Below, in pieces: positions 8,682 through 9,224 of a stretch of 11,196 nucleotides of DNA. Both the position numbers and the translations under genes were made by a program. The DNA comes from a virus (Duplodnaviria > Heunggongvirae > Uroviricota > Caudoviricetes), in the IMG/VR virus record IMGVR_UViG_2541047814_000003, positions 1 through 11,196 of that record. The stretch is one strand, 5' to 3'. Numbering within the stretch: position 1 is the stretch's first letter; each line of letters opens with the position of its first letter. The notes under the pieces were generated by a model. It was not told where the DNA came from and made no database searches. It worked only from the letters and a program-made list of their open reading frames with translations.

Positions 8682-8987
8682 ATGGCTACAGGTTCAAAAA
8701 ACGCAAAATCACAATCACTGACAGCTCGGATCCCGCATGATGTTATTGAAGGCATGGAATCCGTAAAACTGGACGGTGAAAGCAACGCCGGATTCATAGT
8801 AACCGCCATGCGCGGTGAAATCGCCCGCCGCCAGGCAGAAGGAAGCGGAGAAAACCTCCTGGTTTCTTCGCTCGATGCCCTAGCGCAGGTGGAAAAAATC
8901 GGAGTCAAAGCCGCCGAGGAGATCGGGCAACTCGTCACCGTCGCGCGTGAAGAACTCCAGCGACGCAAGGTCAAAGAGCAGGAATAG
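8682..8987 (+). CDS. Hypothetical regulator, possible ribbon-helix-helix DNA-binding protein (101 aa)
   Basis: ATG at 8682 with GAGGA at 8671-8675; N-terminal segment LTARIPHDVIEGMESV...AGFIVTAMRGEIARRQ resembles a strand-helix-helix layout; divergently transcribed from the replication operon. Track ORF start at 8667 is a non-ATG codon without SD. Confidence 0.55.
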   Translation: MATGSKNAKSQSLTARIPHDVIEGMESVKLDGESNAGFIVTAMRGEIARRQAEGSGENLLVSSLDALAQVEKIGVKAAEEIGQLVTVAREELQRRKVKEQE

Positions 8988-9044
8988 CCACTATCAGCGC
9001 CATAGTTTGAGGAACGCAGGCGCATTGCTTTACAGGACAGCACC

Positions 9045-9224
9045 ATGAGCGACACAGAATCAACCAAAACACCATCACCAACTCGTAAGAGACGACGCAA
9101 AAATATAGCGCATGAACATGAATCAGAAAGATTCGCACCTTGTTCGTTTGCTCTTGAGAAATTCCTTAAAGAGCACAGGAAAAAGCTCTCGTTGCAAACC
9201 TTGGAACGAACCAAATCTGACTGA
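9045..9224 (+). CDS. Small basic hypothetical protein (59 aa), below the ORF-track size cutoff
   Basis: ATG at 9045 preceded by AGGA at 9034-9037 (7-nt spacer); translation MSDTESTKTPSPTRKRRRKNIAHEHESERFAPCSFALEKFLKEHRKKLSLQTLERTKSD, stop TGA 9222-9224. Manual translation only. Confidence 0.35.
   Translation: MSDTESTKTPSPTRKRRRKNIAHEHESERFAPCSFALEKFLKEHRKKLSLQTLERTKSD

Follow-up and report, generated by a model that had tools for sequence, protein, structure and literature searches.

The stretch of DNA studied here, called the window below, comprises 11,196 nucleotides (positions 1 to 11,196 of the IMG/VR virus record IMGVR_UViG_2541047814_000003, Caudoviricetes) and is a phage-inducible chromosomal island (PICI) of Escherichia coli, with the gene set of a Gram-negative PICI. 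Positions 8282-9700 of the window (1,419 bp) are 100% identical to part of the chromosome of E. coli 1296KP (RefSeq NZ_CM173857), where the island occupies about 9.5 kb and is flanked by clpS and cspD. The island genes listed by RefSeq encode an integrase, an AlpA-type regulator, a YlcI/YnfO family protein, an Icd-like cell-division inhibitor, a hypothetical protein, a DUF4222 protein, a primase, a single-stranded DNA-binding protein, major capsid and decoration proteins and a small terminase. All annotated island genes lie on the minus strand of the window except that of the YlcI/YnfO family protein, which is the sole annotated plus-strand coding sequence. We examined this gene, which we read as a repressor gene, together with a second small plus-strand gene behind it, orf59, and the long minus-strand open reading frame (ORF) to which both are antisense.

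Two plus-strand genes and an antisense reading frame

The repressor gene (8682-8987, plus strand; RefSeq WP_000190561.1) runs from the ATG at 8682 to the TAG at 8987, encodes 101 amino acids and carries GAGAGGA six bases 5′ of its start. Its product, named ‘YlcI/YnfO family protein’ in RefSeq, passes the NCBIfam model YlcI_YnfO_N (NF041551) with 71.4 bits against a cutoff of 30 (E = 4.7e-20, residues 9-50). Homologues of the repressor were found across the Enterobacterales (256 at E ≤ 0.001), and a tblastn search of 50,697 phage records with the 101-aa protein gave no match.

In the AlphaFold2 model of the protein, a ribbon-helix-helix (RHH)-like N-domain (residues ~10-53) is followed by a long C-terminal helix (59-100). 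Within the N-domain, an extended stretch at residues 10-18 leads into a helix at 19-28 and a second one at 35-53/54. The predicted local distance difference test (pLDDT) score is 80 for the full model and 83 for the N-domain modelled alone, with values of 83-93 over the N-domain blocks. The models have the strand-helix-helix order of an RHH domain (~45 residues), and the strand is left unassigned in the monomer model, as expected where the strand pairs across the dimer. RHH-type Pfam families match below cutoff (PSK_trans_fac in 20 of 28 homologues, best 1e-3), and hhalign places the protein on Arc in the correct register, with E = 0.0097 and a probability of 4%. Among the sister alleles, sub-threshold matches reach HicB (20.4 bits against a cutoff of 21, 4.9e-4) and Arc (E = 0.038), and one allele passes DUF3950; all sub-threshold matches of the repressor alleles are to RHH-type families. 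Predicted topology and sub-threshold matches together support the placing of the 101-aa protein among RHH-like regulators.

Long (101-aa) and short (59-aa) forms of the repressor differ by an insertion of 42 residues (residues 52-93, AEGSGENPL...AREEL, encoded at 8835-8960 of the window). This insertion is predicted as one helix with a pLDDT of about 95, possibly an extra helix for oligomerisation. The same types of operator, described below, accompany both forms. A repressor homologue with enterobacterial-type operators was also seen beside IS-like genes on a 7.5 kb contig labelled Martelella alba (L007). The contig is attributed to an alphaproteobacterium, and contamination or transfer is possible.

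The second gene, orf59 (9045-9224, plus strand), follows the repressor gene after a spacer of 57 nt (8988-9044, plus strand) in which no terminator-like site was found. It starts with the ATG at 9045 and ends with the TGA at 9224. The spacer contains its Shine-Dalgarno (SD) sequence, AGGA at 9034-9037, a modest one of four bases located 7 nt before the ATG; relatives keep CAGGACA. The product is a conserved protein of 57-67 aa with a variable basic N-terminus, TRKRRRK in the window, and a conserved core, ERFAPC(A/S)FALE(K/Q)FLKE(H/Y).

We scanned metagenome and viral contigs with an alignment of the orf59 family and added RefSeq matches, which gave 167 related loci, many of them closely related to each other. 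All 167 (67 distinct DNA versions) retain the ATG, an open frame and a stop in a comparable position, and indels in orf59 comprise whole codons and remain in frame. In pairwise comparisons of 64 versions, the ratio of nonsynonymous to synonymous substitution rates (dN/dS) was 0.29 overall and 0.155 in the core. The antisense frame, which has its third codon positions in common with the plus frame, gave 0.42 overall and 0.356 in the core, and the other four frames 0.8-2.4. The evolution of the orf59 sequence was then simulated with selection acting on either the plus or the minus frame, or with mere avoidance of stops. The observed antisense/sense ratio of dN/dS is 1.47 for the whole gene and 2.3 for the core; plus-frame selection yielded ratios of 1.5-2.1 and minus-frame selection 0.6-0.9, and avoidance of stops only resulted in dN/dS of about 0.8 in both frames. 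These results show that the conservation of orf59 is that of a plus-strand protein under purifying selection, exclude the antisense frame as the one selected and support orf59 as a gene.

The orf59 family is tiny, and we found it in Escherichia-type islands only. A protein search with orf59 returned 29 clusters with 66-98% identity, all from Escherichia, and an exhaustive profile search found nine representatives among 1.84 billion proteins, one of which is a spurious repeat protein. The protein matches phrog_21027 (E = 5.2e-15, residues 5-46), a family of no known function. No matches were obtained in Pfam, NCBIfam, PADLOC or the PDB, and in particular none to a toxin or defence family. RefSeq leaves orf59 unannotated in NZ_CM173857 and lists it as a ‘hypothetical protein’ in CFT073 (WP_000130015.1), CS5L and SCU-104.

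The repressor gene with its promoter region, the spacer and orf59 are all antisense to a minus-strand ORF of 348 codons without a stop (8282-9328), which we call eta-like after the eta gene of P4. It lies directly downstream of alpA (9339-9548, minus strand; PF05930, E = 4.8e-16; a RefSeq coding sequence), a homologue of P4 vis that is convergent with the plus-strand unit and whose role as activator is taken from published work (PMC6092414). On the minus strand the junction of the two reads TAA-AGGGGAGCAT-ATG (9341-9326), the eta-like ATG being located 10 nt after the alpA stop, behind AGGGGAG. In at least six sequence variants, an ATG is found 8-19 nt after the alpA stop, behind a purine-rich or SD stretch. 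At its 3′ end the eta-like ORF ends as the Icd-like (kil-like) protein. The nested Icd-like gene (67 codons, 8282-8485, minus strand; RefSeq coding sequence WP_001247057.1) has its frame and stop in common with the long ORF and matches NF033153 with E = 5.5e-20; when the whole 348-aa ORF is searched, the same family matches residues 300-343 (E = 7.8e-19). As to alpA itself, an open frame of 98 codons extends from a GTG at 9635 (9339-9635), and RefSeq places the start at 9548 (69 aa). The Pfam AlpA domain starts at residue 36 of the long form, and either start may be the real one.

In 97 of 100 unique sequences of the span from the repressor gene to orf59, one minus frame has no stop, against medians of 6 and 9 in the remaining two minus frames. 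The other three sequences come from loci where the repressor gene or orf59 is damaged, and within orf59 the minus frame is never interrupted (0 of 64 versions). Of 134 unique regions followed from icd, 100 keep the frame open beyond orf59 and a further seven as far as the end of the locus, with a median open length of 18 nt for control frames. A long antisense ORF is also found in 9 of 12 loci from other genera, and tblastn of the 348-aa ORF against the 50,697 phage records gave one match, a Klebsiella satellite-like ‘phage’ with an annotated long ORF. When the plus-strand codons are re-drawn synonymously, the minus frame stays open with a probability of 0.22-0.79 for each repressor allele. 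Multiplied over 14 alleles, this comes to about 10^-5.9, a figure that exaggerates the significance since the alleles share 3′ parts. From these comparisons, the island appears to keep the minus frame free of stops.

Recurring peptide-like strings, for example LSLG.PIISGWL, were noticed in minus-strand ORF translations from Xenorhabdus and Photorhabdus (L003, L005, L006, L008, L010 and L011), ~300-900 nt downstream of the repressor gene. They point to repeated DNA in the interval that separates the repressor gene from a 310-aa minus-strand gene. One contig of Xenorhabdus vietnamensis carries two copies of the whole module (L010 and L011).

The plus-strand unit ends in an intrinsic-terminator-like hairpin with a T-rich tail (9292-9319, plus strand): GGCGACCG-CCCC-CGGTCGCC at 9292-9311, then TTTGTTAT. 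The stem has 8 bp, seven of them G-C pairs, and the 3′ region folds with z = -4.6. The end of the hairpin is 28 nt before the alpA stop codon (9339-9341). Read on the minus strand, the terminator lacks a U tail and falls in eta-like codons 6-12. A plus transcript ending there would stop ~8 nt short of the eta-like start codon and would be fully complementary to the first ~280 eta-like codons. Just 3′ of the orf59 stop, the plus strand carries TTGCCCACCAGCC (9229-9243), the minus-strand translation of which is AAGGQ. The window shares this conserved pentapeptide with the eta-like ORFs of O157:H7, Enterobacter soli and Klebsiella sp. (L002, L012, L014), and in the Enterobacter soli and Klebsiella sp. 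loci it persists despite orf59 being undetectable. It may serve as a protein motif in the eta-like product, or the underlying sequence may be a DNA or RNA site.

An earlier note on this DNA, made from the sequence alone, had named both ORFs, the SD and TRKRRRK stretch of orf59 and a terminator facing alpA, all of which we find at the positions given above. Its statement that they form the only plus-strand unit agrees with the island annotation, and the conservation by which it would have the 59-aa frame judged came out in favour of orf59, intact in every related locus. It had further called orf59 unannotated, which is right for NZ_CM173857 but not for CFT073, CS5L and SCU-104; the match to phrog_21027 adds to this. 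The unit was also said to be convergent with alpA. That is correct for the orientation, but the embedding of the unit antisense in a minus-strand ORF of P4 eta/kil type had been missed, and this changes what ‘convergent’ means here.

Repressor alleles and operator-like repeats

A small RHH-type gene precedes orf59 in 165 of the 167 loci. Over about 170 related loci, at least 14 N-terminal alleles of the repressor were distinguished, comprising long 101-aa forms, short 59-aa forms without the 42-residue helix, a 65-aa form and Arc-like forms of 57-63 aa. Their tails, RRKAKEQE or RGIEPKG, are conserved. Each allele with an intact protein (15 alleles) has its own motif of 8-13 bp, with the top 8-mer present two to four times in its own upstream region. 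The motif of only one allele, a non-specific hairpin 8-mer, was also found in the regions of other alleles.

The positions of the sites are fixed in all YlcI-type alleles, at about -100 (O1), -78 (O2) and -30 (O3) from the repressor ATG. O2 adjoins a conserved GTCAA(G), which is TTGAC on the opposite strand, and O3 comes directly after a conserved TATACT/TATATT. The predicted β-strand of the protein and the motif go together: SLTARI pairs with GTCTTACA (the window, 59-aa forms of E. coli and Enterobacter soli), LTTVRV with GAAACACA (E. coli, Xenorhabdus, Photorhabdus and Serratia) and QISIRI with GAATCACA (E. coli and Klebsiella). The same β-strand is thus found with the same motif, although the rest of the protein and the genus differ.

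In the window, the operator-like site O1 (AAGGTGTAAG, 8580-8589, inverted repeat I1) lies just downstream of the -10 of a minus-strand promoter-like site, and O2 (TGGCTTACAT, 8606-8615, repeats D1 and I4) abuts its -35, TTGACA. An extra half-site copy (ATGTAAGAC, 8628-8636) takes part in inverted repeats I3 and I4. O3 (TGTCTTACAC, 8652-8661, repeats D1 and I3) is located immediately 3′ of the putative -10 of the repressor's own promoter (TATATT, 8647-8652) and overlaps the predicted start of the repressor transcript. The window has four copies of TGTAAG/CTTACA. The minus-strand promoter-like site, TTGACA-17-TAAAGT (8592-8620, 10 of 12 consensus matches), reads toward the Icd-like gene and the replication genes of the primase operon. 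O1 and O2 bracket its -10 and -35, and the latter (GTCAA on the plus strand) is kept in nearly all alleles.

Covariation of this kind, between alleles and repeats at a divergent promoter pair, is the mark of an immunity repressor with its operators. Judged by this pattern, the 101-aa protein is probably a DNA-binding repressor with allele-specific operators, and it would both repress the outward promoter and regulate its own synthesis. As an RHH dimer, it would read the repeats with its β-strand in the major groove of the operator. A readable β-strand/operator code is thus proposed that applies in six genera, with operator sites predicted to the base.

A G+C-rich hairpin (GAAGCCCCG ... CGGGGTTTC) was also observed at 8524-8556 of the window, between the internal promoter and the Icd-like start, that is, in the icd leader. 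It occurs likewise at ~2200-2245 of the O157:H7 locus L014 and is kept in most alleles with a variable loop; some alleles have a plus-strand T run after the hairpin. It has no Rfam match. By analogy, it could be a termination or processing signal comparable to the P4 immunity target sites.

The RefSeq annotation of O157:H7 treats the minus-strand ORF as the sole real gene of this interval. We rejected this for orf59 on the basis of dN/dS and the simulations, and for the repressor on the basis of the family match and the operator covariation. RefSeq minus-strand calls over the orf59 region vary by strain (L014 2198-2941, L015 2348-2941, L018 1495-1750, L019 1495-1747 and L020 1495-1855): they include a 247-aa ‘hypothetical protein’ in O157:H7, an ‘Icd-like’ pseudogene and fragments named ‘BRO-N domain-containing’ or ‘hypothetical’. 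The same records omit the plus-strand orf59, and the repressor too where the allele is Arc-like. Gene callers cannot settle the coding strand here, and the annotation of the interval is unreliable.

A candidate immunity operon and alternative readings

On balance, we lean towards the view that the two plus-strand genes are the maintenance (immunity) operon of the island. Our doubt mostly concerns whether the 101-aa protein is a master repressor or a local autoregulator, and the role of orf59. In the mechanism that we propose, an RHH dimer of the 101-aa protein would bind the repeats via its β-strand, shut the internal promoter and limit its own synthesis, and the island would stay quiet. AlpA is an activator in Gram-negative PICIs, turned on by the helper phage, and over-expression of AlpA alone induces EcCICFT073 (PMC6092414). 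Here, a helper phage would turn on alpA and transcription from the alpA promoter would run on into the eta-like ORF, the coupled translation of which would shield the transcript from premature termination, as described for P4 eta. Passing head-on through the repressor operon, this alpA-driven transcription would lead to less repressor and would deliver Icd and the replication genes. The protein repressor operon would in this way take the place of the P4 CI immunity RNA.

With its own SD and a 57-nt spacer free of terminators, orf59 would be co-transcribed with the repressor gene. No covariation of orf59 with the repressor allele or with the C-terminal tail was found: C-terminal variants of orf59 and repressor tails combine freely, which lends no support to a specific contact between tail and orf59. 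Since orf59 is conserved while the DNA specificity of the repressor varies, and its variants combine freely with the tails, its target would be one common to all these islands. Most likely, orf59 would act on a shared factor (the constant part of the repressor, AlpA, Icd, the eta/kil transcript, or a host or helper factor) and not on operator DNA. The earlier note had suggested an RHH-like regulator, which the NF041551 match, the AlphaFold2 topology and the allele-motif covariation bear out. It had also suggested a repressor/co-regulator pair; the repressor half is supported, but the co-regulator half finds no support, orf59 showing no covariation and going undetected by tblastn in 12 loci of other genera.

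A bolder version, which we offer tentatively and regard as possible though rather doubtful, makes the 101-aa protein the master repressor of Gram-negative PICIs. Both strands would be translated over the ~490 bp of the two coding sequences, the repressor operon and the alpA-driven transcript would be mutually exclusive by head-on transcription, and the plus-strand genes would be barred from creating antisense stops. In addition, orf59 would be a young, lineage-restricted, overprinted gene. Within this master-repressor reading, orf59 could be an arginine-rich RNA-binding factor, like lambda N or HK022 Nun, enforcing the termination of leaky alpA read-through.

A local autoregulator, with quiescence arising from lack of AlpA and from termination of read-through, would be in keeping with the induction of EcCICFT073 by AlpA over-expression alone (PMC6092414) and with O3 lying over the repressor's own promoter, as in plain autoregulation; the outward promoter, moreover, is only a consensus match. 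We nevertheless think this unlikely, because O1 and O2 bracket the conserved -35 and -10 of that promoter in every YlcI-type allele, including those of other genera, and because immunity repressors typically have highly diverse alleles with operators to match. The location of two of the three operator positions over the outward Icd/primase promoter, and not only over the pair's own, also speaks against a type II toxin-antitoxin (TA)-like module, in which the RHH protein would serve as autoregulating antitoxin to a small island-stabilising toxin, the 59-aa protein. The gene order, with the RHH gene first, a small partner second and operators of their own, is indeed that of many TA operons, the weak Pfam matches point to the antitoxin-type RHH families PSK_trans_fac and HicB, and swaps of the DNA-binding domain leave the tail and the downstream gene unchanged. 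However, orf59 lacks any toxin or defence match in Pfam, NCBIfam, PADLOC and the PDB and, with 57-67 aa, is below the size of known type II toxins, and a repressor without detectable orf59 in the 12 loci of other genera would be an antitoxin without toxin, which this explanation leaves unaccounted for. We consider it very improbable.

We give equally little credence to a 59-aa frame that is non-functional as protein, its conservation coming from the eta-like ORF or from an RNA role, for example as antisense to the 5′ part of the eta-like message. Coinciding third codon positions do produce periodic conservation in both frames, the minus frame is uninterrupted within orf59 (0 of 64), the plus transcript is complementary to the first ~280 eta-like codons and gene callers usually skip orf59. 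Against this, the plus frame has the lower dN/dS (2.3-fold in the core), and the simulations yield the observed pattern only under plus-frame selection, stop avoidance giving ~0.8. Start, SD and stop position are kept in the 167 loci with indels in frame, and an antisense-RNA role would in any case be compatible with a protein role.

Several points weigh against the immunity operon and the repressor at its centre. All the evidence is comparative, and it is from such comparisons that we infer DNA binding, repression, transcription starts and the translation of both strands. Fetched by similarity to orf59 or to the repressor, the loci make up a biased PICI sample in which islands with other solutions are unrepresented. 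The matches to RHH families of Pfam are all under their cutoffs. Foldseek comparison of the full model and of the N-domain with the PDB gave none below E = 1, the domain size being near the limit of the method, and a profile search of PDB sequences with the repressor returned only a chance-level helix-hairpin-helix match. Allele motifs were picked from their own regions, so the diagonal of the allele-motif matrix is partly built in; independent support for the pairing comes from the off-diagonal zeros, the fixed positions and the recurrence across genera. Promoter-like sites found in the region number 3, with 3.0 expected by chance, and the minus-strand promoter call rests on positional conservation because the scan count is not above chance. 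In 27 of the 134 unique regions (L017 and 26 others), a stop interrupts the icd frame 39-540 nt upstream of icd, and a single continuous eta-kil ORF is thus not universal. The 12 non-Escherichia loci (Enterobacter, Klebsiella, Serratia, Erwinia, Xenorhabdus, Photorhabdus and the contig labelled Martelella) have no orf59 detectable by tblastn beside the repressor, so orf59 is not essential to the architecture, and there is no indication of a binding partner or regulatory role for it.

As regards the breaks of the icd frame, the commonest is situated 105 nt upstream of icd, in the promoter region, and the long antisense ORF then ends before icd.

The locus offers a concrete candidate for the repressor that keeps Gram-negative PICIs silent. 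Through the operator covariation, it also proposes a function for YlcI/YnfO (DUF3950), a family without one. Finally, it is a natural case of fully overlapping sense and antisense frames, one of which seemingly needs only to be open, and this bears on annotation and on the origin of small genes.

Comparison with known systems

A 2018 study leaves the question of a repressor in Gram-negative PICIs unclear (PMC6092414). A 2023 survey presents the zone from alpA to the replication genes as one of Bro-network genes and immunity RNAs, and calls most island genes unidirectional (PMC10111431). Our literature search for a repressor of Gram-negative PICIs found no prior description of one, and a search on YlcI, YnfO and DUF3950 found incidental mentions only, with no prior description of function. 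YlcI and YnfO belong to the E. coli cryptic prophages DLP12 and Qin, a prophage context that differs from that of an island.

The layout resembles that of P4. There, as set out in the survey, eta (197 codons) starts at the stop of vis, an alpA homologue, and kil is the last 65 codons of eta (PMC10111431, citing Forti et al. 1999); a constitutive promoter is located inside eta, and premature termination is averted when eta is translated from the upstream late promoter (PMC10111431). We confirmed this layout in NC_001609, where the eta ATG overlaps the vis stop, and found that residues 144-191 of P4 Eta match NF033153 (E = 1.2e-20). Both elements have an alpA/vis homologue followed by a long ORF (eta with 197 codons in P4, 348 here), the last ~65 codons of which are a nested cell-division-inhibitor gene (kil or Icd-like, both NF033153). 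The P4 promoter within the long ORF, PLE, has a candidate counterpart here by position, and a primase operon lies downstream in both. By analogy, the stop-free frame and the ribosome-binding site after alpA would fit the anti-termination logic of P4 eta. Pairwise BLASTP of the 348-aa ORF against P4 Eta gave no similarity, and the two are linked only through the NF033153 domain. In contrast, the P4 immunity factor is the CI RNA, encoded on the same strand, whereas the island has two protein genes on the opposite strand inside the ORF, with a promoter, operators and a terminator of their own predicted. No Rfam RNA of C4, isrK or CI type was found in the window at gathering scores, nor in 8200-9750 at E ≤ 5. 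Without a C4/isrK RNA match, we do not class the region with the P4 RNA-immunity type, and the likeness is in layout and not in the immunity factor.

With Arc and Mnt of P22 immI and with other RHH repressors (CopG, MetJ and the HicB/VapB type), the 101-aa protein has in common its small size and a predicted strand-helix-helix N-domain. The R-x-P motif at the end of its strand recalls Arc, sister islands carry Arc-like alleles (PQFRMRISPE...) at the same position, and short repeated operators over promoters are found with RHH repressors too. It differs in having no significant sequence or fold match to solved RHH proteins, and the long form adds a 42-residue helix absent from Arc.

Stl/Rpr of Gram-positive PICIs (SaPIs) offers another parallel, with a repressor gene divergent from the replication operon and many alleles. 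Stl proteins are large helix-turn-helix proteins that are inactivated by helper proteins. The protein described here is, by contrast, small and of RHH type. The known trigger is likewise different, being alpA transcription (PMC6092414), with the repressor gene in its path.

Finally, excludons and other switches based on convergent transcription (e.g. PMC12288877) resemble this locus in that opposite units overlap, here by ~850 bp, and mutual interference would be expected. The overlap in the island differs in extent, since it spans entire coding sequences on both strands and brings with it a constraint on antisense stop codons.

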